57,586 nt of DNA from Gonapodya sp. JEL0774 (Eukaryota): NCBI GenBank assembly GCA_027604505.1, contig JADIIX010000031.1, positions 124,001 through 181,586 of the forward strand, given 5' to 3'. The notes under the pieces were generated by a model, which saw nothing but the letters and a program-made list of their open reading frames with translations, ran no database searches and was not told where the DNA came from. The position numbers and the translations under genes were made by a program. Of the stretch, positions 16,906 to 57,586 are shown piece by piece (the first letter of the stretch is position 1; each line of letters opens with the position of its first letter).

Positions 16906-17595
16906 AGAGGGCCTCGAAGTTGGAAGGCAGGCAGAGACCGCGACTTGGATGGGTTTGAGTGGAAGAACGTGGTTGGACGTGGTGCTGATTGGGGTGGCCG
17001 GGGTAGGGGGTTTCTTGGGGCTGATTTGAACAATGCCGGTACTGTTGATATGTAGTTGGATCGCACACTCTTTAGTTTCTTTATACAGCATTTATGAAAA
17101 ATGTGTGTGGAAAAAGTCGCGAAAATACTTTGGTATGTCTTGCAACGTTCCCGTACCGCTAGGTGCCGGTTCTTGTAATCTCGCTCTCTCCCAAATAAAG
17201 GATTCGCTCGGTGGAATCAGATTCCCGCAACTCTAGATTTCAGCGGACATTTCTCTCGTTTGAAGTCACGAAGAAGCGACTGCTTACGGACATTTCAAGG
17301 GAGCGAGCGGGTCCATTTCGCTTTCCTTCTTGACTTGATTTCCGACACATTGGGAGATTCGACTCTTTCGGCAACAGCTGTCGAAGTTTCTGTAGTGAAT
17401 TTACCTGTAACGGAGATCTGGAAGTTCGAGGTGCGTTGAACGAATCAGTTCAATCAAAAGTTTTGTCACAGGCATTATTCAATCGATTGCCTCTAGCACT
17501 CTCGGCCTTCCCGAATCAAATTAAATAGGGCAGCTACGCTCTCTCTAGAGCGGCGAATCGCATAGTCACCAGGTTGAGATTTTCTCGTTGTCGTG

Positions 17596-19200
17596 ATGCC
17601 CGGGAAGAAATCGCGGAAAACGGGACGGAGAGGGACAGACGCGGACCCTCGACTCGAAACCCACAGACTGCTCCTCCTTCGTCAGAAAATGCGGCAGTCC
17701 GCCCTCGCTGGGGTGACCTGATTCCGTCCGAGATTCTCACTCGAATCATCTCCTTTATGAGCTTTTCACGGCAGGCCAAACAACCAACACTTCGAGCGGT
17801 GGGACGCCGGTGGTGCGAGCTACACGATGAGCACGTCTTGAATGGTATCAAAAGGCTGTTTGAGAAACGGATGTTGGTGGACCAGTTTGATGTCGGGTGG
17901 TTGGTTCCAGTGGCGTGCAGGGCGATATTCGTTGCTGCCGAACAAGCGGGGACTGACTCAGACCGGGCCAACGCAACTCTCACACAGATCTGGGCGGATG
18001 ATGCGCCGATATGGAAGTCAGAAATACTCATTGGATGGATACAACGCCTTGCGCCCGTTGCAACAAACTGCGGTGGTTTCCAACTCATTTTCTCGTGGGG
18101 AGACAAGTTTCCGGAAAGGATTCCTGTAACTGCGGGAGCTCGTTTGATCCACAAGCTTCGCATTTCCTGGTTAATGGCTTGTCTGCGGGATTTGGTGATT
18201 CGTATGAACGAGCTAAACGAGGACAAATCTGAGCAAATGGAGTTCAACCACATACACTTTAACATCGTTCTCTCATGGCCATACATCAAAGTTCGTGAAT
18301 CACCACTGCTCATCAACTCTCCTCGACCCGATGCACTGCACGAGATTTCGCACGGACTCGATGACTATGTGTGCCTCGACGACTGGGTCGTAAATGAGTT
18401 CGCACATTGTTACACCTCGGCAACCTTCAACCGAATATTTATTTACGATATTCAAGTGAAGCGTGAAATGGAAGTTTTTCGGGCAATTCATAGTAGGAAT
18501 GTTTCGATCGGAGGAAAGGTACTCCTTCTACGAACGTTGGGAATGACCCGCGCCACTTTGAGAGAGATGATTATGTGATCACCTCAACGTCTCGACAGTC
18601 TTGATCTGGAAGCATATTCAAAATCCTTCGCAAGGACTCCTCTCCTGGTCATGACTGATTTTGCGGATGTCGCCATCACGTGCTCCCGTCTCAGAGACGT
18701 CTGAGTCCCAACTATGCGCTGTATGTGCTTTTCCTCTACGCCATTGCTGAAACAAAGTTCGCTGCACGATCAAACGTTGCCGACATTGTTCACCAAATCT
18801 TCTGCGTGATTCACGGATCGGATTCGGGGGAAGTATTGCACGCACTCTCCTTGAGCGCAGCAGTCTGGTCGATGCAACATGTTGTTGCTTCAGGAGAATT
18901 AGACGCAGTGGAATTCTCGAGCATGTTAGAGTACTTGGATCCAGTTGTGGAAGCATGGCGTGCAAAGGCTATCTCACCAAATTTCGATACTGAGGGAGTG
19001 GACCCGAAGATCGTAAAGCTCTTACGATTTGTGTGCAGGAAGAATGCTGAGTGGTGGCAGAGTATGGTGGCTCTGGAAAAGTAGACCACAAGCATCGTGA
19101 TGCGATCCCTATCATCCGTTTATCTGGTTGATATTCCGATGATAGGCGTGAAAGGGTCGTTTTGGAAATTTCCATATTTGGCGCAAAATCATTGCCATGG
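17596..19200 (+). pseudogene. Intronless F-box-like protein, copy A (disrupted)
   Basis: F-box-like segment WGDLIPSEILTRIISFM...LRAVGRRW, collinear with the copy at 27954-29563. The start MPGKKSRKT (17596) is out of frame with the main ORF. TGA at 18576-18578 replaces the paralog's Trp. There is an 11-nt insertion at 18687-18697 and another frameshift near 19080. Confidence 0.8.
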
Positions 19201-27953: not shown

Positions 27954-29563
27954 TTACCGATTATAAGACGAGATCTCCAAAATAGTTGTCCCTAAGACCA
28001 GATCTCCAATACCACTTCCAATGAATGCACAGTCCCACTGTGATTAATGCCCCGAAAACCGCAAGAGAGGAAGTGCGTCTGCTTCTTTCTGTTTCAACTC
28101 TCTCCGGTCCGCTTTATGCTGCCACCATCGCGCATTTCCTCTTAGAAGTTTCGCGTTTTTCGCGCCAACCCCCCCCCCGCGTCAAAACGCAAGGAGATTG
28201 CATTTGCGTTCCACGCCTCTGTAACTGGAGCGAGGCACTCCAACATGTGCGAGATGCCCAGATCATGTGATTCCTCCGAGTCCACTGCGTACCGCATCGC
28301 CCACATCGCACGATTCACAGAGAATGCAAGCAACACTACCTCCGAACCACAATTGGCGAGGCAAATGAGTCGGGAAACTTGAAGAACGATCTCGGTAAGG
28401 CTCGATCGGGTATACAGCTTGGTCTCCGAGAATACGTGCAGGAACAGAACATACAAGGCATGGTCGGGGCTCATGTCAGAGCAGGTGAGAGCAAGTTCAA
28501 CAAAATCGATCACTGAAATGAGAGGAGTCTTGCTGCTTACTGCAAGAGGAGGTGCCAGGGCGGTATGAAGCACATGGGGCCAGAGAATCGCTTCCCGGAA
28601 CAAAGCAGCACTCATCCCCAAAGTTCGGAGACAGAGAACCTTTCCTCCCACTGACAGGTCGCAGTTCCGAATGGCGGCGGAAATACCCCAGTCATCGTTT
28701 ATGTGGCTCTCAGGGAAGGGACCAGGGATCCGGAAAGATGTGAACGTCATGATACTCCAGTCATCTGCGCAACCCCAGTCTTTTGACAAGAAACCTCAGT
28801 CTCTCCATTTTAATAATTCCAATGGTGGGCAACCATCAATCTTCGGCGAGGGTCCAACAATGATACCAGGACGAGTACAGAAGAGATTGTTAAAGAATTG
28901 GCTCAACCCCGACCATCGTCTTGTTCCATTCAACCCGTTCATCCAATCGAATGCACGCGATAGACGAATGTATAAAAGGGAAAGCCGGAGTATCTAGAGT
29001 AGTTGCAAACAAGCTTCTAGTGGAATTCTCTCTAGCAACCAGTCTCCCCACGAGAATATCAATTGAAACCCTCCTGCGTAGGTCGTGCCTGATGCGAGGA
29101 GCTGAACCCATTCCACGAATTCCTTTGACTTCCAGATCGGTGCATCCGAGCTCCAAACCTTCGTCAACGTTAGAACACCCTCACTTTTCGGTCTTGCGTT
29201 TTCTGTCAGGCCTGAATGAACGGACACTGCTCTGCATGCCAGGGGAACCAACCTCCCGACATCAAATTGGTCAGCCAACGTACGCTTCGCGAATAACCTT
29301 CTGATGCTGTCCAAGACATATTGATCGTGAACGGCGCGCCATTGTCGTCCTACCGCTCGTATTGTCGGTTTTTTCGTCCTCCGCGAGAACCCCACCAAGG
29401 AAATGATCCGAGTCAGAATCTCGATGGGTATCAGGGTCCCCCACCGTGGACGAGTAATGTCATCATCGGACGGCGGTTTTGGCACACCTTGTGCTGCGTT
29501 TGGCGTTTCTTTCAATCCTCGTGGTACCCTAGTTGCAGTCTTCCGTTGCTTCTTCCCCCGCAT
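27954..29563 (-). pseudogene. Intronless F-box-like protein, copy B (disrupted)
   Basis: MRGKKQRKT...RPRWGTLIPIEILTRIISLV... aligns with copy A along its length. In-frame stops at 28996-28994 (TAG) and 28798-28796 (TGA). Frameshift in the G10 run at 28169-28178. Confidence 0.8.
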
Positions 29564-33964: not shown

Positions 33965-36900
33965 ATGCGGACGTCGCTGATGCTCGCACTTTTCCTTGTC
34001 CTGCTTCCGCTGCTTGCGACAGCGGCGCCTCTTGCGTCGTCCTGCGACCGCGCTGTCGGCTGCTTGACCTTGTCGGCGCTCTCAGACTCCGCTCCCGTCC
34101 TGCCCGTCGGGCACAACCGCAAAGGCGCCCTCCTGCCGCTCAGGATCGACGTCGAGTCGGACGTTCCCAAGAATCTTGTGGTCGAGGCCTTCACTGCAGA
34201 CGGTGTGAGTGTCGTTGGAGTCTCGGGCTTTCCATTTTGGGCATATTGTCGGAAACAGCGGAGTCATCAAACGCTAATAATTTTTTTCCCTTCTCCTCGT
34301 AACAACACATGCTGATCGTATTCTTGGCGTTGTTTTTTCAGTCTACTTTCCTCGGCAAATCGCATGTCCATGGCGTGGCGTCGACCGACGGACCCGTGTC
34401 GGTGGCTCTCAACCTCCCCCGAGCCTGCGAGGATCTCATCCAATTTCTGGACGGTATCACCACTGAAGTGACCGTTATTATCCGCGCATGGCTTACTCCC
34501 GAGAACCCCAATTTCGCGCAAGCTCCTGCGAATAAGGTGTCAAAGACGGTGGTGCTGGTGAGTGCAGCAGCCTCGGGCGCACTGCTGCTGGACACCCGTA
34601 GTTCAACTACCCCTCTTTTCCAGTTTCGCCCGAACAAACCCGCCGTTCAGCAGGTCGCCATCATCGAGAATGCTGCCGCTCCTGCTCTACAGCTCAAGAA
34701 AATCGCACCCCTGGTCAAGCGGCAACGGTCATGTGACACGATCCACGCCGCTTACGCAGCAGGTGGGACGACGAACGGAAACACGTTCGACACTATGTGG
34801 TCTCAAATTTCACCAATATCGGTTGTGTCTTGTAACATAGGTACCGCGATGACCGCTCAGGATTACTCTGACTGGGCGGCTTGGAGCTGCAACACATGGT
34901 AATTTCAAAGTGTTTTGCACGTTCAGGTGTTCGTTTGGCGGCACAAACCCTCATCAACCTGATGGTTTTTATAAAGGTACCCTGGTGGCATTGGTAGTTC
35001 AAGCGGTGGTGGCGGAACAACCCGCACTTGTGACACTATTTACGCTGCCAAGCAGGCTGGTGAGTTGCGTCAGAGATGTGGTGGCATGCACATGATTCAT
35101 GTGTTGAGCCTCTTTTCTCATTATCCATCTCCAAATTTTCTCCAGGTGTGACCATGACTGCTCAAGACTTTTCCGACTGGGCTGCATGGGGATGCAACCA
35201 ATGTGAGTTCCACCCAGGCTTCTGATGAAAATGTTCACAGTCTGATCCATTTCGTTGGGCAACTTTCGCGATGGCCTTTGCAACTCAGGGTTCCCGGCCG
35301 GAATCGGTAGCCCGAGCCCACCTCCCCCACCTCCCGCTCGCACAACCACCCGCCGGACCACCACCACCCGCAAAATCACAACCACCACCGTCGCCAACAC
35401 ACCACCTCCACCCCCACCTCCACCACCTCCTCCTCCCCCGCCAGGCGTTACGACCACTCGCACTCGTACCACGACCGTGGCTGCTCAGCCACCACCGCCA
35501 CCACCCCCTCCTGGCGTTACGACCACTCGCACTCGCACTCGCACCACGACCGTGGCACCACCGCCTCCAGCTTCCGGTCCTTGCTCGAGCCCAACTGCTG
35601 GCTGTGTCGACGCAACGAGCTTCCCGGCGACCATCTCGGCCACGGCAGGTGGAGGGAGCGGGTACGTCCTGACCTTGCGTGCGTGGGCCTCTGTACAGAA
35701 GGACCTGTTTGTGGAGTTCAGAAAGGTGAGCGGAAGACCCCACTCACTGGGAAGGCATCCCATTCTCCACGTTGCCGAACGCTGACGATGCTCCACTCTG
35801 TCTTTCCCACTCCAGGACGGCGTCATCGTCTCCAACTACGCCTACGCCTCGCTCCCCGCCGCCTCTACCTCTGCCTGGACATCAATCTCGGTTACGCTCA
35901 CTTACCCGACGCAAACCGCCGGCGGCACCTACCAGTTCTTTGTGTGGCTCACTTCTCCCGGAACCAGCTGGGGTGGCCAGACGTTCAACACGGTGAGTGA
36001 GCCGATGAATGCGGTCAATGGCGCCTAGGCAATTTGTCGTGATTGGAACGCTCATGCTTGGATCTTTGCGTTCGATGTTTCTAAGCTTCTCCCCGTCACC
36101 TTGTCTGGTGGTACCACCCCACCTCCCCCGCCCCCGCCCCCACCATCGGGAGGCGGCAGGGGTAGTGCTGCAGGAGCGTACATCTCGACGTGCAAGACTG
36201 CAGGCCAATACGCTTTGACCTTTGATGATGGACCACACATGTGAGTTTGGGTTCTCGACCTGTCGTGGAGGAGGTTTTGTTTCAAGGCTACCCCACTCAC
36301 CATCGCGTGCTCTCAGCTACACTTCTGGCTTGAAATCCATCCTCGCCCAGTACGGTATCAAGGCCACGTTCTTTGTGAGTTTCTTTTTCTCTTGTGCTTG
36401 AAATAGCACGTGCGTGACCCTGGGCAAACACGACTGACCTGTACTGTATCACTCATTCCAACAGGTCAACGGACAAAACTGGGGTAGCATTTACAACTAC
36501 GGTGATCTCCTCCGAGATTCTGTTGCCCAGGGACACCAGATCGCCATGCACGGGTGGTGGGTTTCCGTTCTTGGACGATGGCACATTCCCAAGGGAAACC
36601 ATCCCACAAAAGCTCAATATGTTCCCGCCCGGCCGTAATGTGTGTTTTTAAAGGTCCCACTGTGACTTCACGGTCCCTTCGACGTGCATCTACGCCAACG
36701 AAGTCGACCAGCTCATGAACGCCATCAACAGCATCATTGGCAAAACTCCTAGCTACTTCCGGTTCCCCTACGGAAGCTACGACGGCGCTGCGCAAAACTA
36801 TGTCGCTGGCAAAGGTCTCAGGGTGAGTTTTATTGTGGCTGGGAGGAATGTTCTGGCCCGATTGGCGCATCCTCTGTGTTCATTATTTTTTTTTTTTTTG

Positions 36901-37462
36901 TGTGTTTTCGCTGCTTGCTTGGGTTCCAGATTGTTGGTGAGTCCCCCGAATAGATTATAGTGCTCTAACTTGTTGTTCACACCATTCTGATTATCGCGCG
37001 GGACGTATTTAGGCTGGAACTTGGACACCAACGACTGGCAAGACGCCGTGAGTAGGCTGAGGCGGAGGAGAAGTCACTGCAGTTCCTTGTTAACATTCCT
37101 ATTCACAGAACAAAGCCGATCCATCTCTCACACTTGGCACCATTCAGGGTGCTTTGAACTCGGTTTCCAGTTCCTAGTGAGTAGCTTTCTGCGACCTTCG
37201 TCTCGAACGCGCAAACCTCTTGTCGCATTCAAATAAACTCTCCCTGCCTGATGCTGATGCGCTATATCCCCGACTTTTTTTTTTATTTCTTCACCATGAC
37301 AGTGCTACTTGGGTCGCTCTTGAGCACGACGTGTGGCCCACGACCGCCGGTGCAACTTCCAACTCGTGGATCTGGGCGGGTCTGTCCTTCATTCAATCCA
37401 AGGGATACCGCTTTGTGACGATCGCAGAGTGCGATGGTGACTCAACCGGTGGATACCTTTGA
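33965..37462 (+). CDS. Secreted modular polysaccharide (chitin) deacetylase, CE4/NodB family, paralog 1
   Basis: Signal peptide MRTSLMLALFLVLLPLLATA. All five CE4 motifs appear after splicing: TFDDGP, HGWSH, RFPYG, DTNDW, LEHD. Many short GT-AG introns. Confidence 0.95.
35400..35565 (+). repeat. Pro/Thr linker duplication (PPPPPPPPGVTTTRTRTTTVA x2)
   Basis: Near-identical DNA copies of ggcgttacgaccactcgcactcg...accacgaccgtggc. Confidence 0.85.
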
Positions 37463-37895
37463 GTATAATTTCGTACGACAAGGATCAGGGCGGAAGACAT
37501 GGAAGGGAGGGTTGGACTTTGGAACTACATAATTATGCATGGAGAAAGTGCATCGACGTACCAAGCGTTCTTGTTATACTAAGTCTTGCAAAAGTAGAAT
37601 AATACGTCGCAAGGAAAACAGACCTTGCAAATATGTGTACATGGCTGTGTTTACGTCACATGTTCGTTTTTTCTCCCCCTCGTGCAAAAATTTTGAACTG
37701 AGGTTGGGGCTCGACCCCCGACTGAGCTGGCCACACCCTGCCACACCCCGCAAAGAACGACGAAACTTTGCATTGCTAACAAGGCCTACGATGTTCAGCA
37801 GCCACTTATACCTCTTGTACACTGCGAATTTTCGGGCAAATTGGACGGCTTCAGTTCAATAGAATTTCCAGTCCAACATTATTTATTTCGGTTTG

Positions 37896-37943
37896 TCAAG
37901 GGGCGGTGTGTCCTGGTTGATCGTGTGACCTCACCCTCAGCTT
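37896..37943 (+). promoter_or_regulatory. Upstream motif shared with the first deacetylase gene
   Basis: TCAAGGGGCGGTG ... CCTCAGCTT, matching 33886-33916. Confidence 0.35.
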
Positions 37944-38048
37944 GAGCGCCGAGGATCGCGCCAAGATGGCCTTCTATGGTGTTTTTTGTACGCCCGTTTG
38001 AAAAACTTTCAAACCCAAAAGTGGAAAGAAACCAGACTCATTCACACC

Positions 38049-41000
38049 ATGAAGCTGTTTCTACTCGCTTTGGTCCCGCTTCTGACCCAGGCGTCGCCGG
38101 TGCCTTCGCTACCGTGCGACCGTGCCGTGGGCTGCGTTGACTTCTCTCCAGTCGCCGATTTGATCCCCATCTTGCCCGTCGGACGAGAGCGAAACGCCGC
38201 GCTTCTCCCTCTCAAGCTCAACGTCTACTCGGACGTTCCCCGCAACCTTGTTGTAGAGGCCTCCACCGAGGATGGGGTGGGTAGTTGCATCACTTCTTGG
38301 CACCGAATCGGATGCATTCCCACACTAAACGGACCTCGATTTATATATCTATTCTCAGCTCTATTTCCTTGGCAAATCTCATGTTCACCGGGTCTCATCT
38401 TCCGCGCATCCGGTACCGGTGGCAGTCGATCTTGCCCGGGTTTGCGCGGAATTGACCGACTTCCTGGAGGGCACTGTTCACGAGTTGAAAATCACCTTGA
38501 AAGCGTGGCTTACTGCAGACGATCCCAACACTGAAGCCACCGTGTTGACCGAAGTGAAAAAAAATGTCGTCGTTGTGAGTACCGGCTTGGTGTCGCTGAT
38601 CTGGTTGGACTGGAACCAACGTGTTGCGTCCTTCCCGGTCTTGGCAAACCTAGACTCGCCCAGTTGTTGGAATTTCAACATTACAACAGCACAGCATTAT
38701 GGAAACAGATGAATCCAAGATGGTCTCTCCCTTGATTAAGCGCCAGCGCTCTTGCGATACCATTCACGCAGCCTACGCAGCAGGTACGTCATCTAAACAC
38801 AAGTCTCAAAGCCTCATGCAATCTGCACACAATCTACTTTTCATATCTGGATGATAGGAACCGCCATGGTGTATCAGGACTTCCTTGACTGGTACACCTG
38901 GAAGTGCAACACGTGGTGAGTACCGGGCAGCCCTTTCACCTGAACGAATGTCTGTCTCAACTCACTCACATGATCTCTTCAAGGTACCCCGGTGGCATTG
39001 GTCGCTCGTGCGACTCTATTTTCGCCGCATACACAGCAGGTTCGTCAATCTAATATACTTGGTCATGCCAGGGAAGACCGAAACCTTCTCACTTATTTGA
39101 ATCGATCCGTGCACGCTCAGGCGTTGCTATGGTAGCTCAAGATTATTCGGACTGGTCAGCATGGAAATGTAGCACATGTGAGTCTCCCGCGACACTTACT
39201 GTGCACCCAGCAAATCCGTGCATCATGCGCAATCCATGTCACTCTGTTAGGGCACCCAAGCGGTATCGGCAGTGGTGGATCCACTCCTCCACCTCCCCCA
39301 CCACCTCCGACCGGCAGCAGCCCCTGCGCGAACGCAGCCAACGGATGTGTCGACACCTCGAGCTTCCCGACTTCCATCTCTGCAACAGCCGGTGGAGGTG
39401 GTGGATACACGTTCAGCTTCCGTGCATCGGCATCCACCCAAAAAGATGTGTTTGTCGAGTTCCGCAAGGTGAGCTCAAAACGTTACTGCGGGAAATGGTC
39501 GTTCCGGTGTACTGACCGCCCGTCCTCCTCGCGACCCCCGGGCCCGTTTCAACTAGAACGGTGTCATCGTCTCGAACTATGCCTACGCCTCGCTCGCTGC
39601 TTCCACAAGCTGGACAACTCTCTCGGTCACGCTCACGTACCCCACACAGACGGTCGGAGGTACATACCAGTTCTTTGTCTGGCTCACTGCCCCGGGTAAA
39701 AGCTGGGCAGGTCAGACGTACAACACCGTACGTCAGATTGCACGTGCTTGGCGTCAAGACCGCGGTACACTCACATTTCTCAACATTGTACATGCCCTCA
39801 GCTCCTCTCCGTAACGCTCAGCGGGGGATCCTCGCCACCTCCTCCGCCTCCTCCCCCACCTTCTGGAAGGGGCGGCAGCGCTGCCGGTGCTTATATCACG
39901 ACATGCAAGACTCCCGGAATGTATGCTCTTACTTTTGACGACGGCCCTTACATGTGAGCTTGCAATCGAGGGCCTGTTTATTTGAGCAGTTTTGTAAGAA
40001 TGACGTATGTATTCCGGAAACCACCAGCTACACTGCAGGTTTGAAATCTATCCTCGCACAGTACGGTATAAAGGCTACTTTCTTCGTGAGTCTACATGGC
40101 AAATTTCTATCGAATGTACCAAAACTTGACACTGAGAATCGCCACAGGTCAATGGGAACAACTGGGCGAGCATTTACGACTACGGGGACCTTCTCCGAGA
40201 CTCCGTCAATCAGGGTCACCAGATTGCCATGCATGGCTGGTAAGAAACGATGCACTTTTTCTTTTGAAAAGATTCAATCGCGATGGAATCTGAGTCTGAT
40301 TTATCGCTGTCACCTTCTTTGCTAGGTCACACTGCGACTTCTTGACCCCCGCCACCTGCCCGTACTACTCCGAGATTGACCAACTCATGACGGCCATTCA
40401 GTCCATCATCGGACGTACCCCGAGCTACTTCCGGTTCCCGTACGGTGACTTTGATTCAGCGGCTCAGAACTACGTGGCGAGCAAAGGACTTCGGGTACGT
40501 CGCAAGGCCGCTTATAATCGTGTTTTACCGCCGTGCTGATCGTATTGTCTTTCTAATGGGATCATGTGAACGAATCTCGGATGATCGTGAATGCAGATCG
40601 TCGGTAAGTGATTGTAGTACCCTATGATGCATTGAAACTGCACCTGCTTACTAGGAACGCTATTTGATTACACGTATAAGGTTGGAACTTGGACACCGAA
40701 GACTGGACCGACGCAGTGAGTGACTTGTTTGCCGCGGGTTTTCTTATTTGGAAGCTTTGGGACTGATCTTTCGGTGAACTCAGAACAAGGCAAACCCGAC
40801 GTTGTCGCTCAACAACGTCCAAAACGCTCTGAACGCGGTCGACAGCTCCTAGTGGGTTACTCTCCCGTCACACTCTGTTTTCCCCAAGTTGTTTCCTCAT
40901 CACTCACATTTTACATCGTATTATTTCTCCCACGCCAGCGCCACGTTTATTCCCCTCGAGCACGACGTGTGGCCCACCACGGCCGGTGCCACATCGAACT

Positions 41001-41098
41001 CGTGGATCTGGGCAGGCCTTTCGTTCATCCAGTCCAAGGGATACCGTTTCGTGACTGTAGCTGAGTGCGACGGTGATCCTTCTGGTGGATACTTTTGA
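38049..41098 (+). CDS. Secreted modular polysaccharide (chitin) deacetylase, CE4/NodB family, paralog 2
   Basis: Signal peptide MKLFLLALVPLLTQA. Motifs TFDDGP, HGWSH, RFPYG, DTEDW, LEHD. Architecture and intron pattern closely follow paralog 1. Confidence 0.95.
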
Positions 41099-42050
41099 GG
41101 AGGTACCGATGGAAATAAAGTACGCAAGGGGGGGGTGATCACGGGATAAACGAGTTCGGCTTTGAATTATACTATTTTGGTCATACAGCTGCTTGTCTTT
41201 GTACTGAAACTGAATTATATATACGTGCCAATTCGCAGATATACCTCCTCGAAACCGTGCAGGAGGGAACCCAACTGCGCGCATGTGACCCGGGTCACAC
41301 TGCGAAAGTGGCAAACGCGACTGGTCTCATTCAACTCCTTTTTGGTCGCAGACAATCCGCGCCCACCAAGGCGTTGTATTAGCTGCAGTCAAGAAAGTGC
41401 GGACAATCTTCCGTGAGATCTTGTTGAGATTTCGAATGAGTTGATCCCCGCATGGTCGTGGTCCCTGGCATTAAAGAACTTTCCAATGTTTCAAACCACG
41501 TACGTATAATAGGATTCACAAGAAGATATAAACTTATAATTCTTTTCCTTGATTCTCCCTGGCAAAACTCAAAAGTAATGTTTCCTGGGAAGTGTGGAGA
41601 TCTTTGGCCTCGTGCGTCCCCGTAGTTGCCAAGATCGAGATCGCCAAGCGTGGGGAACGCTGTTTGTTCTGGTACATAGAGGAATATGGACCGATTTTCA
41701 AGAGCTGCTGGTCTTCCCAAATAGTAATATTGGCCGTCCAGAGCTCATCCTCGTGGCGGAACTCGCCATTGCAGGAGCAGATTGTCATGAACCAAACATG
41801 AGACGTTTGACAGCCAACTTCGTGTACGCTGCAATTCTCTTGGCTGCGAAGTTCAAAAGCTGTTACCGCCTCGAAATGGGGACAAAGGTCTTCCATTTTT
41901 GGAATTGCAGGCCCGCTCAGGCCCGCGGGTCAGGTCGCAACCAATGGAGGCTGTTCCCCCCCAAAAAAGTTCTTGCATTAATCCCGAAACACCGCCCAAA
42001 CTCCGTTCACCCCAGGAGTTTCTTTCGTTGTTCTTGAGGTCTGAAACGGA

Positions 42051-45000
42051 ATGGCTCGCCTCGCCCGTCCCTGGTCGTTTCTGGCCTTTCTCGCTTTGCT
42101 CGGTTTGGTGACCCTCGCGCGATCGGCTCTCGCCGATTGCTCGGGAAACGGCGATTGCGTCAATGTTTCCGACGTTCCTGACCAGCTGCCAGTTACATTG
42201 ACGGGGCAGAGCCGGAACGGAGCCGTGGTACGGCTCCAGCTCAATATCCGGTCAGCAGCCCCTCGAAATCTCGTCCTTCGAGCGACCACCACTGATGGGG
42301 TGAGCAAGATTTGTCAATTGACGATGACTTGTGAACATCAACAGAATGATCCCTTTCTTGTCATATGCGTTACGTGTGGTGCATGTATACCTTCTTCCAA
42401 ATTCGGCCATCGGGAACTTTTGACACAGAACAAAACTTTGGGAGAAGCTCGGCTACACTCGATCCAGTACAGCGATATATCTCCAGTGACTGTAGGCGTA
42501 TCTCTCCGTCCAAATGATGACGCAACGGGCCGTTTTCTCGGTGGGGTGGACACCCAACTGACGCTGACCATCACAGCGTGGCTGGCAACCGACAACCTGG
42601 AATTCGAAACCGACGAAGCCACTAAAGTCCAAAAGACAATCACTGTGGTATGTACCACTGAAACGTTATGCTTCGTTTGAAACAACGGGGCCTGTGTTGC
42701 ATGGGAAGTTTGAAGGGCTGACGTCCGGTCACATTGTTTACTTTTACCTGATATTCACAGACCCGTCCAGCCCCTGTCTCGCGCGAACCCATTAGCATAT
42801 CTAAGTCGTCGAGCTCTTCGAACTTGCGTGCCCGTGCGCCAGCTTCTCCATGCTCTGACGGTGGCGCAGGTGGCTGTGTCGACACCACTCGGCTCGCGTC
42901 ACTGTCATCGAGTGGCGGAACGTTCACGGTGCAAATTTATGCATGGGCACCCACAGCAAAAGACTTGTTTGTTGAAATTCACGACACCGCGACCCAGGCT
43001 TTGCTGTCCAACTATGGCTGGATCTCTGTCCCTGCTGCGACCACGTCATCGTTCGGTCTATACACGGTCTCACTCACTGTTCCTGCGCTTACCGCCGGTC
43101 CATACAACTACTATCTCTGGATGAGTGATCCTGGTGCCGGCTGGGCAGCCCGCTCTTATTCGCAGGTACGTGTGCTCGCGTGCCCCCGCCTGCTTTGAAG
43201 CCGGCAAATTACCAAGACTCACGATGATTCAACACACTACCAGAACGCTGCACTGTCAATCGTCTCGCTCACTTCCCCATGTAGCGGGGGTCAAATCAAC
43301 TGCATCGATACATCTTCCCTCCTTACCACGGTCTCAGCGAATGTCGGCACCTTCACCGTCAATGTCGGTGCATGGTCATCGAAAGCCAAAGATCTGTTCG
43401 TCGAGGTCCACCAAACATCTGATGGCGCCCTCCTCTCCAACTACGGCTTTATCGCGCTCCCCGCGGCGACGGTCTCGTCCTTTTCGACGTATCCAGTTCA
43501 GCTCACAGTCCCCGCGCTGACTCCTGGCGTCGCGTACAACTACTACATATGGATGTCTGATCCAAACGCAGGTTGGGGAGCAAACACCTACTCCATCAAC
43601 GTGCCCATCACTGTCACGCAAAGTTCCAACGCCGTGACCACCACCAAGGCAGCAACCACAACCGCTGCTGCAAAGACCTCGACCAAGATCACGACCAAGA
43701 TCACGACCACCACCGCAGCGCCGAAAATCTCTACCACAACGGCGACACCCAAGGTAACCACAACCACCGCCATAGTTCGGACGTGCGATACCATCTTCGC
43801 TGCCTCCAAAGCAAACACTCTCACAGCCCAAGACGTTGCCGATTGGGCTGCATGGTAAGCTCCGACGATCGAGTGAAACAGGTGTTCCAGCCAAATAGCC
43901 ACATTTTCACCGTAATGTTCGAACGCGTGCTTGTAGGTCCTGCTCGACGTGGTATCCCAGCGGCATCACTCCCTGCACGGGCAATGCTGCGCGCTGCATC
44001 ACTGGTTTTCCTGCAACAGTTCCGCAAACGAAGTCCGTCACCTTCACCGTGAGCGTTTTCTCAATCGCTCGGGAAGACCTCGTCTTTCAAATTCAACAGG
44101 TGAAGAATCCGCGGGTATTCTGGTTGCATCATACGATTTGCATTTGCTCATTGGCTTCGTGTTCTGCAGGCCGGAGTTGCCGCCTCACCTGAATCTCGGT
44201 TGGCTGTTGTCAGTACCTCGGGGGCGTTGGTCCAGCTTACATTCACCCTCACCTACTCCACGACGCTCACAAACTCGCCATACACTCTTGTATGGTACTT
44301 TGCTCCCACTGGCGAGGGCTTCAGTGCCGCAACCATGCAAGGTCAAGCAAGCGTGACCCTCGCTGCCATCACCAGCCCCTGTACCGGAACCAGCACCGGA
44401 GGATGCATCGATACCACAACCTTGCCGCTCTCCGTATCTTACTCGGTTGGAACTATCAACCTGAACATTGGTGCATGGTCCGCGACCAAAAAGGATCTCT
44501 TTGTGCAGCTTCAAAAGTCCGCATCGGCGGTCACCGTTTCCAACTACGGGTACGCAAGTGTGGCTGCTTCTTTGAGCTCGGATTATACATCGTACCTGGT
44601 TACGTTGAATGTGCCGCCGTTGGTGAGATGTGCCGGTTTGTCTGAAATTGGGTTTGATCTGATCGTATTGCCTCCTGTTTTCGTGTCACCTGTAGACAAG
44701 CGGACCTTATCAAATCTTTGTGTGGATGACAGACCCAGGCAAGGGCTGGCCATGTAAGTAACGTTATATACATGTCAACCTTCGCTCTGTTTGTGCTAAT
44801 TGTAATCTTGAAACTACCCGCACTATATTAGCTGTGTCATACCAGTACGTATCATCTGTTACTATCACCGGCATTGTCACTCCGTTGCCCGGCGGCGGTA
44901 GCCCCGCGGGTTCTTACATCGATAGTTGCAAAACGCCTGGTCAATATGGTGGGTGATCTTTGAGACAGCTTCGGGAGACAATAAGTGTCGAGTTATGGAT

Positions 45001-45961
45001 TTCACAACCTCTTTCGTCGTGTCACTTCAGCTCTGACTTTCGATGACGGACCATACATGTCAGTTTGATTCTCATGTCACGAATATCATTGCTTTCGCTT
45101 CCGTCTAACTGCAATTGAAAACTATTGCAGGTACACTGAAGCAGTGAAGACCATCCTGGCCAAGTACAACATCAAAGCGACGTTCTTCATGAACGGTTTC
45201 AACTGGGCGCCTATCACCGATTATAACGCGACGCTCCAGGACTCGATAGCAAAAGGGCACCAGCTTGGAATGCACGGATGGTACGGAGATTTTGTTGTAC
45301 GCCTTTTTGTTCAAGCAGACGGTGTCTTAGTGTTCTGTGTTCTTCTCGGGATCAGGTCCCACTGCGACTTTTTGAATCACGCCAATTGCTCGTACCCTGC
45401 CGAAGTTGATCGCCTCGCTAGCACCATCCACGATATTATCGGAGTATACCCTACCTACTTCCGATTCCCCTACGGTGACTACGATGACCAAGGTCAAGTC
45501 TATGTGGCATCCGAGGGGTACCGGGTGAGTACGGGATAATTTTTATTTGAATAGCGAAAAAGGTCTTCTCGTTTTATTGAAATCGCTACTTTGGTTATTT
45601 TGAATGGCGTAGATTGTCGGATGGAGCATCGATACCCTCGATTACACGGCAGACAATATAGCGAACACCACCCTGTCTCTTCAAAACATCAAGAATGTTC
45701 TCGAGGGTCAAAGCTCTTCAACGTGAGATTTTGTCGCACTCACTTCGTCTCTTGTTACCTTTGTTCACGAGTTCGTCTGTCCACTGCTCATCCTTCTATA
45801 GTTACAGCACCATCAGCTTATCACACGATGTCCACGCAACAACCGCTGCAACCTCCAACGCGTACTTGGAGTCGGCAGTGCAATACATCCTCTCCAAGGG
45901 CTACACTTTTGTGACGGTCGCAGAGTGCGACGGTGACCCATCGGGAGGATATCGGACCTGA
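42051..45961 (+). CDS. Secreted modular polysaccharide (chitin) deacetylase, CE4/NodB family, paralog 3
   Basis: Signal peptide MARLARPWSFLAFLALLGLVTLARSALA. Five beta-rich modules and one Trp/Cys module precede the catalytic domain, which has TFDDGP, HGWSH, RFPYG, DTLDY and LSHD. Confidence 0.95.
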
Positions 45962-46671
45962 GTCAGAAGCTTGCGCGATAACATATTTATAGCTGATCTA
46001 TCCCAAACGTACTCTTGAGACTCGCGAAAAAGCTATCTTCTGCACAACTAGATATTATGTACTACAATAGGAATCTTGATCTCTACGTATACACGTCCAT
46101 CCAGCTGTTCTACTGGAATGTTGGATTGCAGCCAAGCACAGTCTATTACACATGGCACTGAATTCACTCAAATCGTTGTACACAGACTGTGTTTAAGACT
46201 ATGGAGTTGAGAGGACAGCTTTGGAATCTGCACATAGACGAGCGTTGGTATGGAATATGGACGCTCTACACATACATGCCCACTGCGGCGGTCGTGGAAA
46301 CCGATGTATTATTAAATGATTTAGGCCACACCCCATTTACCTTAAAAGCAAGTAAGAAGAGATTCAGAACGATGCTGACCTGTTGAGCTGCAGTGGAAAC
46401 CATTTACTTGAAATAGTGGCTGCAGGCCAACGACAGTTCCTCCGCCCAAAATTACCACGCATGAAAATCTAATAACTCCCTATGGAACAAAGCGCTTAAA
46501 CAAGCTCTTAAGAATGCTCCTTCTGGTAGCGCTCCTACTGAGAAGTGGGGGTTGTGCTGCACTGGAGTGTTGGCACTACGCTCAGCCCAGCCAGTTTTCT
46601 TCTACAGTTTGCCACAACCAACGCACTGTCACCTTTGAACGCACCGTTGCGTTCAATAAGCTCAGTTTCCG

Positions 46672-49600: not shown

Positions 49601-50122
49601 CTGTACTTGGCAGAAGCCGCGCCAGAGGGTAAGACCCGCAATGACCTTCAAGCGGAGTGGAAGACAATGACGGAAGCGGACAAAAAGGTGAAGATCCGAT
49701 CCGTAGTTCGGATGTTCCAGCGACTGATCTCTTTGCGTGTAGCCTTGGACGGACAGGCACGAAGCACTGCAGAAGGATTTCCAGAAGAAGAAGGCGGAAT
49801 GGGCTGCTAAGCAATCGGGCACTGCCACTGCCGAAGCTGCCGAGGAAGATGAGGATGAAGGCGAGGAAGCAGACGAAGAAGGGGTCGAGGATGAAGACGA
49901 AGACAGCGACACGGATGATGACGATGAGGTGCGTTCAAATATTCAAGCCTGGCGAGCTAGTTTGATTCAATAACCTTGGCTCAACAGTAGGTGGATACTC
50001 CTCAAAACGCGAACAGCAGCGAGCTTATTCGAGGTGCAAATACTTTCAACGCTTTCAAAACGGATTCTGATTCGTCGGGGGATGAGGATGAGTGGAATAT
50101 CGACAAGAGTCAATCGTCGTGA
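46672..50122 (+). CDS. Lys/acidic-rich protein with three HMG boxes and acidic tail
   Basis: Spliced boxes: PNRPPPPFMAFRKE...SERWKVLSDEEKKEY...YKEEKVQW; PKRPTTAFFLF...GEIWKTLSSEERSVY...YKEEIMAW; PHPPLNAYFLY...AEWKTMTEADKKPW...FQKKKAEW. D/E-rich tail; probable stop at 50120-50122. Confidence 0.85.
47918..48127 (+). repeat. Degenerate 33-bp (11-aa) coding repeat, about six copies
   Basis: KSGAETASKAS / KSGTEAASKA / KSNAEENIKFS / KPGPETTDKGL / KTGIEISSKTS / KSGSETANKAS. Confidence 0.75.
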
Positions 50123-50628
50123 CCAAATTGCGAATAGTTCTGCTTTGGTTTCCATTCATGTGTAGTGTCCTTTCTTGGAAGAAAATATATAGTCACGTCA
50201 TCAATAGTTCATCAAACAAAATATGGTACCATGTGAATAAGCAAGGTCTTCTCTCCTGCGCAGGAAAATTTGAATCACAATATCGCGGCGGGTGCAATTT
50301 GGCGGGCGGCGACCTAGTCGCTAACCCTATGAACGTTGCTCGCGGCAATTGACGGACGTGGTTGACGACGAAAGGTTCGCCTTACCCTCCTGATGGCAGC
50401 GTGCTCCGACGCACGCGGTGGAAACGGCCGACCGCCGGACCGGACGACATCCCCGATGAACGGGCACGGTGCCACCGCCAATTGGAGTGTTGCGGACTCA
50501 ATTGAACTGATCATTTTATGTAAAAGCCAGACACCGTAACTCATTTTACTGTTGTTCCAAATCTACAAGGTATAACGGCCAAGATGATATCTCCCGTGGT
50601 GATGGTGCACTCGCGCGTTGGGCGATCA

Positions 50629-53199
50629 TCATATTCCCAATTCCTCCCACAGTTTCTTCTTATCTAAAAATCAGTATGCACGTTAACCACGAATTGATTT
50701 CCGCGACTCAAACCCATTACCAACTCACGGCGCACAATCGCATCATCGAGCCTGCGGTACATTTCTTCGTCCCACCCACTTCCGGGATCCAACTTCTGGG
50801 CAAGTTTCATCCGGCTCTGCTGAACGTTAAGCACGATAAGTGACAATTTCCGACAAAAACTCTCGGCTGATTGATGGAAGACTATTTCGAAGGTTGGAAT
50901 AGCGTTATCCGCGTCATCGAGTGCAGCCTTGCACAGTTTGCTGCGACGGAAACGGAACTTTTGCGCTGAGGGTCGAGACACTAACCTCTCAATGATACAA
51001 TCACTCACATATCGGGGTTAACAAAAACAGTGACCATCCTCTCAGCCGTCCTCACGATTTCTCGGGCTCCCTTGATATCCGAGCGTAAAGCCGTGCCAGT
51101 GCACACCAAAATACCTGGGTGATGCAAATCATCATAGTGAGTAATTGCAGGGGAGGGCTTGGGCGGACGAGAAACTGGAATTACGCCGACGCTGCAGTGG
51201 TTTACTGAGATACCCCAGACTCACTCGATGGTCATTGTACAGAAGCAGATTGGGTCTCAAGGGTACCCCACAAGTTCTCATACGTCTGGTAGTACCGTTT
51301 CCAAGAGTAGAAATAGTGATTCGAGAGCGTTTTCCGAGTAACCCGTCACAGACACCTACCGTTTAGTTCCTGTGACGTTTGTACAGTACTTTTCGCAAGA
51401 GGGATTTAGTAGGTCATCAACTTCGTCTGCCGATAATCTCTGAATCTTATGACATTTTGGCTAAGAAGACGCAATATTGATGTAGAATGAGCTTGTGGAT
51501 CGACTAGTTCGGGTTTTAACACCAGTCGACCTATTCGATCAAAATAACTCACACAAAAGCTCTCAGCCAAACTTCCATGCAGCTGAACGCAGATTTGCCT
51601 CTTCTCTGGCGGCACATAATCATATTCGTCCGGGTCCCCAGAAGTTTCTTGGCTGCACCACTGATCCTTCCCGCTTTCCTCTGAAGTGAACGGAGAGGAG
51701 GCAACGACACTGGGCAAGGAATCTACCGACCAGGTTGACAATGGGGATGAGTCTTCAGTACTGTGGTTGAGAAGTCGAGCCTCAATGTTATCAATGTTCT
51801 GCGAGTATACTCTGCGAAGCTAATGTCCGAGTGAAGATGTCCGAATCAAGAAGAAGAAATGTTAGAACATTGTAGTTCTTGGTACCCTATCTTTTGAACC
51901 AATTTCGTTGAAGGTACATTGTTCTTTCGACTTCGATTCCGAGTTGTACAATTCACCCAGTACTATGCTGGAGATGCTCTGCGGCAAACTCAACACTCAC
52001 CATGTCAAAACCTGCCAAGATCATTAAAAAGTCATGGTACGACGTTTTCTTGGCTTCTCGTGCGGCTTTCACAAAGTGGGCGACGACTTCCGCAAACTGA
52101 TTGACAAGGGTTGAATCAGCAAGGATGGGAGGAGTTGCCAGTCTCGGAATGACCTACTCACAACTTCTTGAGGGGCGAAATTCAGCCTTCTCGTGGTGAG
52201 TTGGGAAGTCGGATAGACCTTGCGGGCGTCGAACAGGTCCTGGGGCTGGTGGTCGCATGCGGGAAACTCAAAGCTCTGTACGGTTGAGATATATGTCTCA
52301 AATGACAATTTCGTACCTTTTGAACTGGGTGCCGAGGGTGTTATTTGTGGGAGGACTGCGATGTCGAATAACAAATGATGAGCTTACAGTATCGACGCTG
52401 CTGCTCCGTAAAACGACCCTGAAAGGTGTTGAAAATGCTGTTCCCAGAGGCAAAGTCCTGCTCAAAAGATAGATGGGATATGAATCATTGGGCGGGGTTT
52501 AACAAGCAGCAGAGTGCTCCATTCAAGAAGTGCAAAAGCACATACAGGAATACCAGCATCAAGAGAGATGCCTGCACCGGTGAGAAATACAAACGGACGT
52601 TCTGAAGGGTTGTCTTCGACGTCTGTGCCCGTTTGGGTATGAACGAAGTTGGCATCACCAGAACCACCACCACGCATGGACTTACACTCGACAAGTATTC
52701 CAAATACTGCTGTCAAACTTACGAACTCGCTCCACTTTTTTCGATCCTCGTCGGTCTTAATTTCCGATGGTTCAGTGATGTGTTCGTCCAGACCAGCCAA
52801 CCTTCGAAGGAAGGGAATGGACTTCGGGATTTCGTCTTTCGCCAGATGATATCCAGCCTTAGACGCAGATTGGACGTGGCATTGAGATTCGTCAAATTTC
52901 GCTCTTTGGGCATCTGTACCCCAAATCTGAGTTGTATGCTCGCCAGGGTAGAGGCTCACCATGACGGAATAAGGCCACGGAACGCTTAATCCAGAAATGA
53001 AATTCTCTCCCATGCTCCAATGAAATTCACGAGGACGAGGCGGAGCATCGACTGGCGGTTGTGTGTGGACAGATGGGGGCGCGACAGTCTTCGGCAATAT
53101 GTTGTATGGACCGATTCGTCTGCCCAACACGTCTGCTCCTCCAGATGGCGCATTCAGCGATTGCTGTCGAATCTGCTTCTGCTTTTTTGCAGGGGGCAT
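50629..53199 (-). CDS. Divergent Sir2-family (sirtuin) NAD-dependent deacylase, Hst3/Hst4-like
   Basis: Motifs in order across exons: VFLTGAGISLDAGIPDFAS, DLFDA, TSYHDFL, RVYSQNIDNIE, VQLHGSL, CPKC...C, LRPNLLLYND, LVCTGTAL, VFVNPD, FEIVFHQSAESFC. Two small junctions (about 52250-52390 and 51180-51225) are unresolved. Confidence 0.85.
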
Positions 53200-53317
53200 A
53201 TCCAGCGTGGGGAAGAACTTTCGATGTGAACAACCTTTGCAGGGTGACGGAGTGCAAGGACCTCCCGACAATAATGCCAGTCATATTCATACAGCCTGTT
53301 ACAAAGCATTCCAGCAA

Positions 53318-53695
53318 TCACAGTCGCTGTGAGGGCGAAAGCTGATGCCCTCGACGTGGTGAGCGTCCTGGCCGTACTGGCGACTTTAAAAAGCATTCAT
53401 TCATTCTCTCGACATCCCAGTGGCTCTGATGACACTTCACCATCAAAGCGAACTTATTCTCCACTCAACCACCTTCCACTTAAACCAAACGAAAAAGTCT
53501 GTATTAGCAATCTCATATGCATCTCCACCCCCTCCTTGGGAGGGTGACGGTAATTCTCCGCGCCACCTTGCGGCCGGCGCATCCCAGAACGCCCTCTGCA
53601 ATGACCTACCTGTTATGGTGGTCCTGGTGCAGAGGTGGAGGACGTAACTACATACATGATTCAGTGATTCTACCACCGAGTGAGCTCAAAAGCCC
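53318..53695 (-). ncRNA. Candidate Fanzor omega-RNA scaffold (structured non-coding region)
   Basis: At least seven stem-loops lie immediately 3' of the Fanzor stop on the same strand. Most contain G-U pairs that form only on the minus-strand transcript, and one is capped by a GCAA (GNRA) tetraloop. Ends are not defined. Confidence 0.6.
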
Positions 53696-53879
53696 TTTGC
53701 ATAAATTGACCCAAACTCTTCCGGAATACCAACAGCCAGCAAGCCCCAGCCCATTACTCCTGTGTACTAAAAGGAAGTGTGTATGTGGCAATGTACTTGA
53801 TCAAGTTGTAGTCCATTGATCAGTGACTGTCAGTCCTCCTTGTTCATTACTCGTTGATCCTGTCTTCATCCATCCCCAA

Positions 53880-56800
53880 TCATTTACCATCAGCTTCGCT
53901 TGGATCACTCTCCTGGGATGACTCCTCGGGTTCTTCGGTACCGCCATCCAAGTGTGGTGACTGCGCGCGGGCATTCAGCTCCCACACGTCCAGGCCCTCA
54001 TCCTCTGCACGTTGGAGTTGCTCTCGAGTAGGTCGAGCATCTCCACGATCATCACCTTGCTGACGTGATCGGCCTCTTCGAGGTGTACCACCACGGCGTG
54101 AACGATCAGCTCCCCACAATTGAGTCCGCTGTGCAGGCCGACCCCTTCCAGCACTGTCGTCGTCGTCACTCAGATCAGCTCTGCGGTTCCGGAGCCGTGC
54201 TTGACGGAGTTGTTGAACAATGTGGGGTGGTGTAGCAGGATCCGCCTCCCTCCAGTGATCGGCCTTGGGCGGGGCTGGTGGCCAGCGGGGATCAACATTC
54301 CAGTCTGGTCGGTGTCCCAGTGATGTTGAGTATGCATGCTGGGTGAGATCAAAGAAGATGGCTGACGCAGTATCCCTGTTCATGTAAACACGTTGCTGGC
54401 CACCAGGACGAGGGAGCACAAATCGTGGGTGGGTGAGGTCGTTGCAAGTGTGAACGCGCCAGGTCTTTTCGTGCTCTGAATGTTCCAAAGAGAGAGGTAG
54501 CACACGCACACACCAATCAGCCACAATGTTTTGTAGAGGCAGGTTTCGCCAGGTGTCACGACGAAAATATTCATCGCGTCTGTAAACTTTCACAACTTAC
54601 CAAGAAACCGCTCAGCACAGCGTGAGACGGGGTAGTGGTTGGTTTTGCACCACCAAGTCTTGTGCCGCAAAATTTCGCTCGTCGGGCGGTTCTGTTGTTG
54701 TCGGGTGACTCTGACGTACGCATTCGGTCGTCTCCTTTCGACACTTTGGGAAAGATTGGTAGCCAGTAGGGTTTGACAGAGTTTGGAGGACGGAGGGAAT
54801 GAAGTTACATGTATCAGTTTAGCAATATCAACACAGATCACAGAGCGTGTGATTCCATGTTGTACCACCAAGAGGGGGAGAAGGCCCTTGGTTTACTCAC
54901 GGGTGAGGGCACTTGAGGTGCCAGACTCCAGTCCAGTTGAGATAGTTGTGGCGATCTGTTTCGTACCCGATTGCGAGAGGATCTTCTGTGCTGGAGCCCT
55001 TCTCGGACACGATGATGACAGTAGTCTGCCGGAGCACGGCAAGTGCCTCAGTGGAACCCTGCATATAGAGAGGCGTTCGAGAAAAAACATGGGGGGAGGG
55101 CAAAGAATGTCGTAAAGAAAATGTTGAGTGCATTTTTGGACAGGATGCACAGGAGCAAAAACGATTGAAGCCAAGGTCAAAATCGAATTCAATTTGTCCC
55201 AACGTATCACTGTTTGTAGTACTCACTCGGAAGGACGCGGGAGCGTAAGGTCCACGCTTTTCACCTCCTCCAATTCCGATCGTGAACACAAATGGATCAT
55301 TTTCAGGCAGTAGAGAAGGCTGAGCAGCTTCGCGGCCATCTCGATCGAGTTTCTCGTGCTTGGGCCCAAACAGATTCCAATGCGCACGATTTTCTCGTCG
55401 AGTCTCGACATTGTTGCGTTCCACTGCTCTCAGACAGTAGAGCCTCGTTCTGTTGACAACATCGAAGCCGTCGGGTGATCTATGCGTTGGGTGCCTGCTC
55501 CGCTTTTTTGGGATGTACGTTCGAGAGGGCTTTCGATGCAAGATCAGATGATCGTAGAGCAGGCATGGTTGGGTTGATTGGCAATGGTTACACACTTTTT
55601 CTGTTAGATTGCCACGCAATATATAAATCACAACACGCAACATACCAAAAATCCCCTTAGATCCAGTGCGAACATCTTTTCCCCCCGTTTCCTCGCAACG
55701 TTCATGTCAAATCGAGACTTGCGAAATTTGGGACTTCTCCAAAAATAACTCATACTTGTGAGATTATTTTTGGATGTTCATGTCAAAATAACGTCGACGA
55801 ACAAAGTTTTTCAATGTGTGGAAACGTTGAGTATGTCAATCTTGTGTTTGAAAGGAGTAATGAGACAGCACAACTTACATTGCATTCGAGAGATTAACAT
55901 TGTTGAGATATTGCAGAGTCTCTTGCGTATTTGCACCATGTCGGTAGTTCCTCAAGCCCTTGACGTTCGTGATGGATTCTGAAATGAAGGTGAATCAAGT
56001 GAAAGCGTATTTGATCCATCAGTGATCAGAATGTCCGCACAAAGGGCACGAGCGCATAGTTACGCACCATTGATGTCGGGATACTCCTTGCGGGCTACTT
56101 TCTCCAAGGTTTCATGCTGGCGATGTTGAAACACCCAGCTTTAGATTTGAATTGCAGAGTGTATGGCATAATCAGCGCGAGTGTGATGGTAACCAAGGGT
56201 CCATTCAAAAAATCAGTCAACATCGTTAATGCAATCCACTGTACCACAACACTCACTTTGACAATTGTGACGAGTAGTTCGATTCTTCACGTGGCTTTTC
56301 TTTTCTTGGAGTGCTGCGTCCCGATCTACTCTGGTGGCCTGATCTGCAGCATTTTGAGGATACATGACCCCTGGAGCGGCGTTGCTTGTACCGGCAGCGG
56401 CAAGCATCTCTTGTGCGTTGCGACAGAAGCGGTGAATTTTTCGCCTGTTTCAAGATCACAACGTGTGCAATATTGGAGAAGTTTTACAATGAGGAAGCAT
56501 GAATCCACATGGAACAGAATCCCAGATCGGTAGAACCCAAGAACAGCAGCAACTCACCGGTATCAGCAGCTGCATGTCTCACCCCTGGAGCCTGAAAACG
56601 GGCTGGATGTAGGACAGTGTTTCGAAGCATGGAGACAATTTGACCTGTTGTCTCCACTGGATCTTCTGCGATGATATTGTAACCGAGCTTGGGATTCTGG
56701 CGAAAGTCTTGCCAGGTCTTGATCCGTCCTGAGTGCCACCCAAAAAAAAAGTTCGATCAAATTACTGCAATCTCTAGGCTGCTGCAGGTCTGGGTTTCCA

Positions 56801-57586
56801 AACAGGAACTTACGGCCGTGCTGATGTGCATCTTTCTCACGAATACTTTCCGTTTTGCATTCCTGTGGGAGTTTTGAGGGGTCCAATTGTAGCTTGAGAT
56901 AGGCCACTTCACCATCGTGCGAGAAGTTAATTTGTGTGACTGGAATTCCGATCCCATTGGGGTACGCTGGGCATGCTGCAAGTAAGAGTTTTATGGTGAT
57001 GCAAATTCAACAGGCACCGGGGTCAATTGGTGTTGCAAATTCACAGAGGGACAAAACACCATTTGGTTTCCAATTCCAGGTTTGACTCACCCCTTTTCAT
57101 GTTTTCCTTGTTGTAGAAGACCTTTAACTGTTGTTGCGGGTGGTTTGCTTGTGGATGTCGAACATCAACGGCGTGCAACTTGTCCTCCACTCCCCAGACC
57201 CGAAGCATGATATCGACCTTCTGTGCTGGAGTCACATTTGTACTGTGGTAAAGCTCGTGCAAGTTTCGATGATTCTGGTTCTGCAAATTTTGCGGCAAAG
57301 CGATCCGAACAGGAGATGTGAGGAAAGGGTTGTTGGGAGGAGGGTTGGTCAGGTATTGGCACAGGAGAACGGTACCAGCCCAGCCCATCTCGGAGTGATC
57401 TGGAGAAAATCAAGCGTGGACGGGAGGGGGGCGCGATCAGATTTCGAACAAAAGAGGCACGCAAAAATCCGCATGCACGGTAAGAATGTGACCAATCCAG
57501 AAATTTCAGGGGGATTGCAACTTAGCATTTTGTCTCCTTGACAGCATAAAAGCAGTTCAGTTACTCACAGACACCCCGTTTTCCAA
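53880..57586 (-). CDS. Fanzor (eukaryotic TnpB/Cas12-like RNA-guided endonuclease), intron-containing; 5' part lies outside the window
   Basis: Spliced motifs in canonical order: INFSHDGEVAYL (WED TDG-like), NIIAEDP (RuvC-I D, 56663-56661), YFWRSPKFRKSRFDMNVARKR, FTIGIGGG, TVIIVSEKGSS (RuvC-II E, 55004-55002), TWRVHTC, YMNRDTASA (RuvC-III D, 54374-54372) and GHRPDW. Eleven GT-AG introns predicted in the window. Confidence 0.8.

Follow-up and report, generated by a model that had tools for sequence, protein, structure and literature searches.

In studied Fanzors the omega-RNA is encoded at the 3' end (PMC10432273), and the published Fz1 omega-RNAs are described as 75-150 nt long with a 7-bp first stem (PMC11423790). 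Fanzor1 scaffolds are reported to finish in a stem, without a pseudoknot, and the protein to carry a TDG motif in its WED domain (PMC10711439), while a relocated RuvC-II glutamate and the RuvC-III aspartate are given as marks of the group (PMC10530073, PMC10711439). In an intron-bearing algal Fanzor1 the RNA lies in the 3' UTR (PMC10530073). Fanzor1 from the genus Gonapodya is already on record, since Fz1 entries for Gonapodya prolifera (KXS09892.1, KXS17374.1, KXS18494.1) and for Hyaloraphidium curvatum appear in supplementary tables of PMC10432273 and PMC10711439; the host is of the same genus or class as that studied here, a likeness by table entry and not by alignment. In the searchable supplementary files of PMC10432273 the name Gonapodya occurs in the tree table only, with no omega-RNA for those entries there, and the three organism names searched for do not occur in the two text supplements of PMC10530073. 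Searches with the gene described below recovered none of the G. prolifera or Hyaloraphidium Fz1 entries. The present gene is a divergent addition to this known system.

This study concerned a 57,586-nt window of the Gonapodya sp. JEL0774 genome, in which a preliminary description had marked a 378-nt span (53318-53695) as a candidate omega-RNA 3' of a Fanzor gene. With moderate confidence, and by analogy with studied Fanzor1 systems, minus-strand positions 53680-53523 are proposed to be the omega-RNA scaffold of the divergent Fanzor1 upstream, the bases that follow serving as guide. The locus resembles that of SpuFz1 (Spizellomyces punctatus Spu-1; PMC10432273; PDB 8gkh, 9ceu) in its chytrid-grade fungal host and Fanzor1 motif order, and the RNA predicted here is, like the 88-90-nt omega-RNA of SpuFz1, downstream, in sense, and built of a short hairpin and then a terminal stem. 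However, SpuFz1 is reported as a single ORF with 42 loci, 134 ghost copies and 30-nt inverted repeats, whereas here there are about ten introns and the sequences searched yielded no copy; and the SpuFz1 RNA lies within 80 nt after the stop, whereas the candidate begins 200 nt after it. CrFNuc, a Chlamydomonas reinhardtii Fanzor1 in Helitron2 (PMC10530073), is likewise intron-bearing and has a structured RNA in the 3' UTR, as is predicted here, but for it six gene copies, a further 20 copies of the RNA, reads from small RNA and the formation of an RNP are reported (and no cleavage detected), whereas the present RNA is a candidate predicted from sequence. The 150-nt omega-RNA of GtFz1 (PMC11423790, PMC10432273) is close in size and multi-stem scaffold to the 157 nt predicted here, but overlaps the last 17 codons of its gene, whereas the candidate has no overlap with the ORF. 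Identity of the gene to the reference sequences was 14-20% in a forced alignment. Coordinates are collected in Table 1.

Table 1. Features of the locus, numbered from the first letter of the window.
Feature	Position	Strand	Remarks
Sirtuin-like gene	51200..53199 (end approximate)	-	ATG 53199; colinear motifs TGAGIS, YSQNID, QLHG by eye
Remainder of flagged span, background folding	53318..53507	-	Likely 3' flanking sequence, or the next gene's promoter and 5' UTR
Predicted guide	53508..53522	-	By analogy with reference right ends, if closing stem ends the scaffold
Structured core, candidate omega-RNA scaffold	53523..53640	-	6-bp closing stem CUCCAC/GUGGAG around long stem, GCAA hairpin and CCCUCC/GGAGGG hairpin
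8-bp hairpin with 2 G-U pairs	53661..53679	-	Mean pair probability 0.95; possible first stem-loop of candidate scaffold; its segment alone z -1.42
Divergent intron-rich Fanzor1-like gene	53880..57586	-	5' part beyond window end; stop TGA 53882-53880; exons match P0001
Last exon, RuvC-III aspartate (MNRD, codon 54374-54372)	53880..54475	-	Followed by 163 residues, the last of them a low-complexity tail
Exon with relocated RuvC-II glutamate (VIIVSEK, codon 55004-55002)	54901..55058	-	Rank 1 of 115,078 positions; invariant column in alignment A2
Exon skipped by database model, encoding conserved helix SPKFRKSRF	55646..55754	-	AAG acceptor 55755, GTATGT donor 55645; predicted from sequence
Exon with candidate RuvC-I aspartate (IIAEDP, codon 56663-56661)	56558..56728	-	Many splice models open toward 56117, with no unique winner

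The gene upstream corresponds to P0001, a stored protein of 669 aa that its source enters as hypothetical and assigns to a species of Gonapodya; nine GT-AG introns reproduce it exactly from this DNA. A donor at 57568 and an acceptor at 57400 connect one more exon upstream, in frame and reaching past the window end. The protein as it stands therefore probably lacks its N-terminal part, and some 150-215 residues of the REC lobe would be expected beyond that end. Open, GT-AG spliced frames were found throughout the visible gene. Between 56557 and 56117 there were 3322 open splice models, the best scoring 31 bits, with no unique winner; a pseudogene reading based on a stop at 56142 was dropped, as open GT-AG models exist. 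Several acceptors in the gene are AAG.

The preliminary description had placed a Fanzor upstream on the same strand, and this was borne out once the exon skipped by the database model was restored. In a six-frame scan of 115,066 positions its SPKFRKSRF stretch was the best match to that block of the profile, and it falls within a 429-nt intron of the annotation. Adding the exon (55754-55646) raised the score against a 29-sequence Fanzor1 profile from -1.4 to 23.2 bits (E 1.6e-9); this was the best of 321 open splice models, giving a corrected E of about 5e-7, and the top of 2000 shuffles reached 4.9 bits. Two further Fanzor1 profiles matched the corrected model at E of about 6e-7 each. The reference Fanzor1 loci had been gathered by motif, and the seed alignment built from them (A1) matches SpuFz1, PpFz1 and GtFz1 at E <= 1e-48; the profiles left out the chance 15-mer loci L035-L088, the TnpB-like L208, in one set ORFs below 250 aa, and in another those with less than 150 aa before the motif. 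Unmodified P0001 was not significant against the Fanzor1 profiles by HMMER or hhalign, phmmer gave it no relative, and neither P0001 nor the separate exons had a significant match among Pfam or PDB sequences. One skipped exon thus erased all detectable homology, and automatic gene models can in this way hide very divergent Fanzors.

Motif-chain tests on P0001 were equalled by 0-2 of 1000 residue shuffles and by 1-44 of 1000 block permutations, and a further set gave z 2.7-5.0, which is suggestive; the same kind of test on raw genomic DNA, free of a gene model, was not significant (z 0.7 and 1.0). Residues E390, N504, R505 and D506 occupy invariant columns of the Fanzor1 alignment. The RuvC-I aspartate is probably that of IIAEDP (DPV vs DPG; rank 12 of 115,126 positions), judging by sequence, the other candidate being HAAADT further on. 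The counterpart of the WED-domain TDG would be SHDG at residues 115-118 or ETTG, both inexact. In the zinc ribbon of the aligned gene other residues replace the first CxxC, and scattered Cys and His are left; reference L010 likewise lacks this first CxxC. After the RuvC-III motif, 44 reference sequences have 15-101 residues vs 163 here. A structure model from the single sequence had a pLDDT of 37 and no fold match, and one built on the Fanzor alignment had a pLDDT of 53 and ranked Fanzors first at E 0.09-0.2, a ranking that is circular by construction. Taken by its sequence, the gene is very probably a very divergent Fanzor1 homologue, with putative nuclease activity. Since this homologue lies on the same strand, a downstream omega-RNA is a reasonable expectation.

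The hairpins listed in the preliminary description were all present: ten helices were checked, comprising 58 Watson-Crick and 5 G-U pairs with 0 mismatches. On the minus strand the 378-nt span folded better than its shuffles (z -2.64, 0/100 equal), with z -1.42 on the plus strand. Within it, the core (53639-53524, 116 nt) gave z -3.76, with 0/200 shuffles equal, the long stem (53645-53589) z -4.28 and the stretch 53682-53524 z -3.02, while 53695-53640 gave z -1.42 (200 shuffles for each of these three, all on the minus strand). The core was the best-folding part of 52600-54400. The 3' half (53523-53318) was at background, with z -0.90 and 31/200 shuffles equal, and the sole part of it to reach a value like those above was a 38-nt hairpin at 53449 (53449-53423 region; z -2.71, 3/200 shuffles). 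Because the folding excess is confined to the core and the 3' half is at background, the span as first drawn was about twice too wide: its identification as an omega-RNA may fit the 5' part, 53682-53524, which folds above chance, but not 53523-53318. The structure is real but narrower than that span.

In a scan of 902 tile-strands over window positions 120-54240, the 120-nt tile 53520-53639 ranked third, on a grid anchored on that very tile; shifted by 20 nt, it gave z -1.2 to -1.8. There were 17 tile-strands at z <= -3, 10 at z <= -3.7 and 8 at z <= -4. From these counts, a comparable tile would be expected somewhere in the intergenic gap with a chance that is estimated roughly at 5-15%. Tiles of 120 nt as strong as the core (z -3.7 to -5.5) also occurred at window positions 17400, 27960, 15480-15720, 42120, 2760 and 22560.

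The array had also been called strand-specific, its G-U pairs working on the Fanzor-sense strand only, and this claim was poorly supported. The 5 G-U pairs among 63 all lie in three flanking hairpins and the core helices are without any; the long stem is equally good on either strand (plus -24.5 vs minus -23.9 kcal/mol), and for the 3' domain the plus strand gives the more stable fold (-25.3 vs -21.1 kcal/mol). At 23 reference Fanzor1 loci, a window at z <= -3 was found in sense in 7 and in antisense in 9, so folding and strand bias discriminate poorly. The strand argument therefore adds little.

The candidate lies on the sense strand of the Fanzor gene, 200-357 nt past the stop. An omega-RNA would be expected at the 3' end of the ORF or directly behind it; the strand here is the right one, but the distance was matched by only one of the eight usable reference families. 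The right ends of these eight (of nine examined; family D, of low complexity, was excluded from the distance count) lie about 80-150 nt past the stop in seven and about 350 nt past it in one. Together with the hairpin at 53679-53661, the core would give a scaffold of 157 nt, whose predicted stems are an 8-bp hairpin, a 7-bp stem and the 6-bp closing stem; the closing stem has a predicted probability of about 0.6, and the mid-domain adopts alternative folds. By analogy with the reference right ends, a scaffold of about 120-160 nt with a guide starting near 53522 is as good as an even call, and the scaffold may be shorter, ending at 53589. The RNA probably does not take in the 3' half of that span. 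For the predicted guide no second match with fewer than three mismatches was found within this window, a result that says little, since a guide copies the flank.

A comparison was made with 36 right ends of giant-virus Fanzor1 elements (alignment A4, from which 19 of 55 candidates were removed as false ends, long inserts or near-duplicates). In these a hairpin is joined by a linker to a terminal stem that encloses inner stems, with compensatory change in 12 of 19 pairs. The layout of the core, a short hairpin, linker and terminal stem with inner stems, resembles them, but this layout is generic, and the second domain at 53449-53322 fits it as well; the core lacks the CG loop and the A-rich linker that are conserved in the reference RNAs. 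A covariance model (R1) had no match here and is insensitive across families: at E < 1 it did not recover the right end of any of another 22 Fanzor1 loci either. The giant-virus right ends (L103-L168) are in themselves a covarying RNA family that ends in GTGTA. A GC-rich metagenomic Fanzor1 family (L199, L201, L206, L221) is conserved unusually far 3' of the stop, over 310-380 nt, with internal deletions and with antisense windows that outfold the sense ones.

If the proposed scaffold works as studied Fanzor1 RNAs do, the 3' end of the Fanzor transcript, or of the element, would give rise to the omega-RNA, whose first stem-loop would bind the RuvC/TNB face. The terminal stem would end at the right end of the element, and about 15 nt of flank would direct cutting of the empty insertion site beside a short TAM.

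The alternative that survives best, though unlikely, is that the omega-RNA lies elsewhere, either directly behind the stop (53879-53696) or across the part of the ORF that encodes the long C-terminal tail. The hairpins of the flagged span would then be flank or UTR. Reference right ends stand 176-443 nt past the RuvC-III motif, which here would land in the last exon, whereas the core ends 860 nt past it (357 nt past the stop), and the overlap of the GtFz1 RNA with its ORF (PMC10432273) is a precedent for such a position. Moreover, in 16 of the 23 reference loci no sense-strand window reaches z <= -3, so that a genuine omega-RNA in another place might escape notice. However, the stretches in question fold at background, with z +1.14 for the post-stop stretch 53879-53696 (minus, 200 shuffles) and, in another scan, -1.6 to +0.9.

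Somewhat less likely again, there may be no working omega-RNA, the Fanzor1 being old, low-copy or decaying with its element end lost, and the stems being mRNA 3' UTR structure, DNA palindromes or chance. The extreme divergence of the gene, the altered RuvC-I and zinc-ribbon motifs, the competing splice models at 56557-56117 and the lack of an annotated paralogue in the searches are consistent with this, as are the equal stability of the long stem on both strands and the tile-strands that fold as well as the core. Against it stand the open reading frames and the two catalytic residues kept, and short or unannotated copies escape protein searches.

Those searches, and others for copies and element ends, gave little. 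No second copy of the locus was found in the window, or in the viral contigs, metagenome contigs or protein sets searched, and none of 3 viral and 62 metagenome stretches was confirmed as a related locus. A 15-mer of the core occurred at 54 viral loci, none of them convincingly extended (38 nt at 82%, E 0.011, for the best). From the protein searches came only P0001 and P0002, the latter matching intron-derived residues; the word searches took in proteins of at least 336 aa, one search scored the best 7997 candidates, and another could conceal relatives more than 50% identical. Within the window there were no long inverted or direct repeats at the locus, and the ORFs scanned included no transposase; the left end of the putative element lies beyond the window. 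A CTRR end of Helitron type, seen by eye at 53507, was dropped as weak.

It is improbable that the core is an unrelated non-coding RNA, such as an intron-encoded small RNA. On the minus strand a donor-like GTATGT at 53655 and an acceptor-like CTAAT...CAG with its end at 53499 enclose the core nearly exactly, but hexamers that resemble a donor as strongly have a density here of 1.4 per kb, so about one is expected in the 680-nt gap. Rfam gave no match at E <= 5 over 50000-57586 and one at E 7 over 53190-53900, ARAGORN found no tRNA, and C/D, H/ACA and Sm boxes, as we take their patterns to be, were by eye not in canonical places. More improbable still is a reading in which a deeply diverged, intron-rich, low-copy Fanzor1 with a long disordered tail, missed by Pfam, phmmer and gene callers, would have moved its omega-RNA well away from the nuclease ORF, into a 3'-UTR spliceosomal intron at 53655-53499, with splicing freeing the RNA and setting the guide end.

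Least probable of all is that the entire 378 nt has a function, be it as a single long RNA or as two scaffolds in tandem: the earlier suggestion of more than one RNA agrees with the z of the whole span, with the hairpin at 53449-53423 and with the fold of the 3' domain into a terminal stem and two inner hairpins, but the 3' half as a whole is at background, its domain is better on the other strand, and such an RNA would leave about 120 nt to the next ATG and exceed the 75-150 nt of published Fz1 RNAs (PMC11423790).

If the preferred reading of 53680-53523 as scaffold is true, it would provide a predicted omega-RNA for a monoblepharid Fanzor1, of which none was found in the searchable supplements of three Fanzor papers or in literature searches. 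The known mechanism would be unchanged, and the case would gain in weight should the gene turn out to be a domesticated single copy, or should splicing free the RNA.

The window is eukaryotic and intron-rich, with matches to mitochondrial carrier, WD40 and polysaccharide deacetylase proteins. The gene that follows the candidate, at 53199-51200, has motifs that we take to be those of a divergent sirtuin, and the separate exons tried had no Pfam or PDB match. Long minus-strand ORFs of 750-820 aa, without a Pfam match, lie at 7516-9978, 24568-26826 and 3-2330. A 234-nt inverted pair (17700-17933 and 29219-29452, 73% complementary) probably represents paralogous genes on opposite strands. On the plus strand, at 34700-46000, at least three paralogous genes stand in tandem, spaced about 3.6-4.9 kb apart, and one of their exons matches polysaccharide deacetylase.
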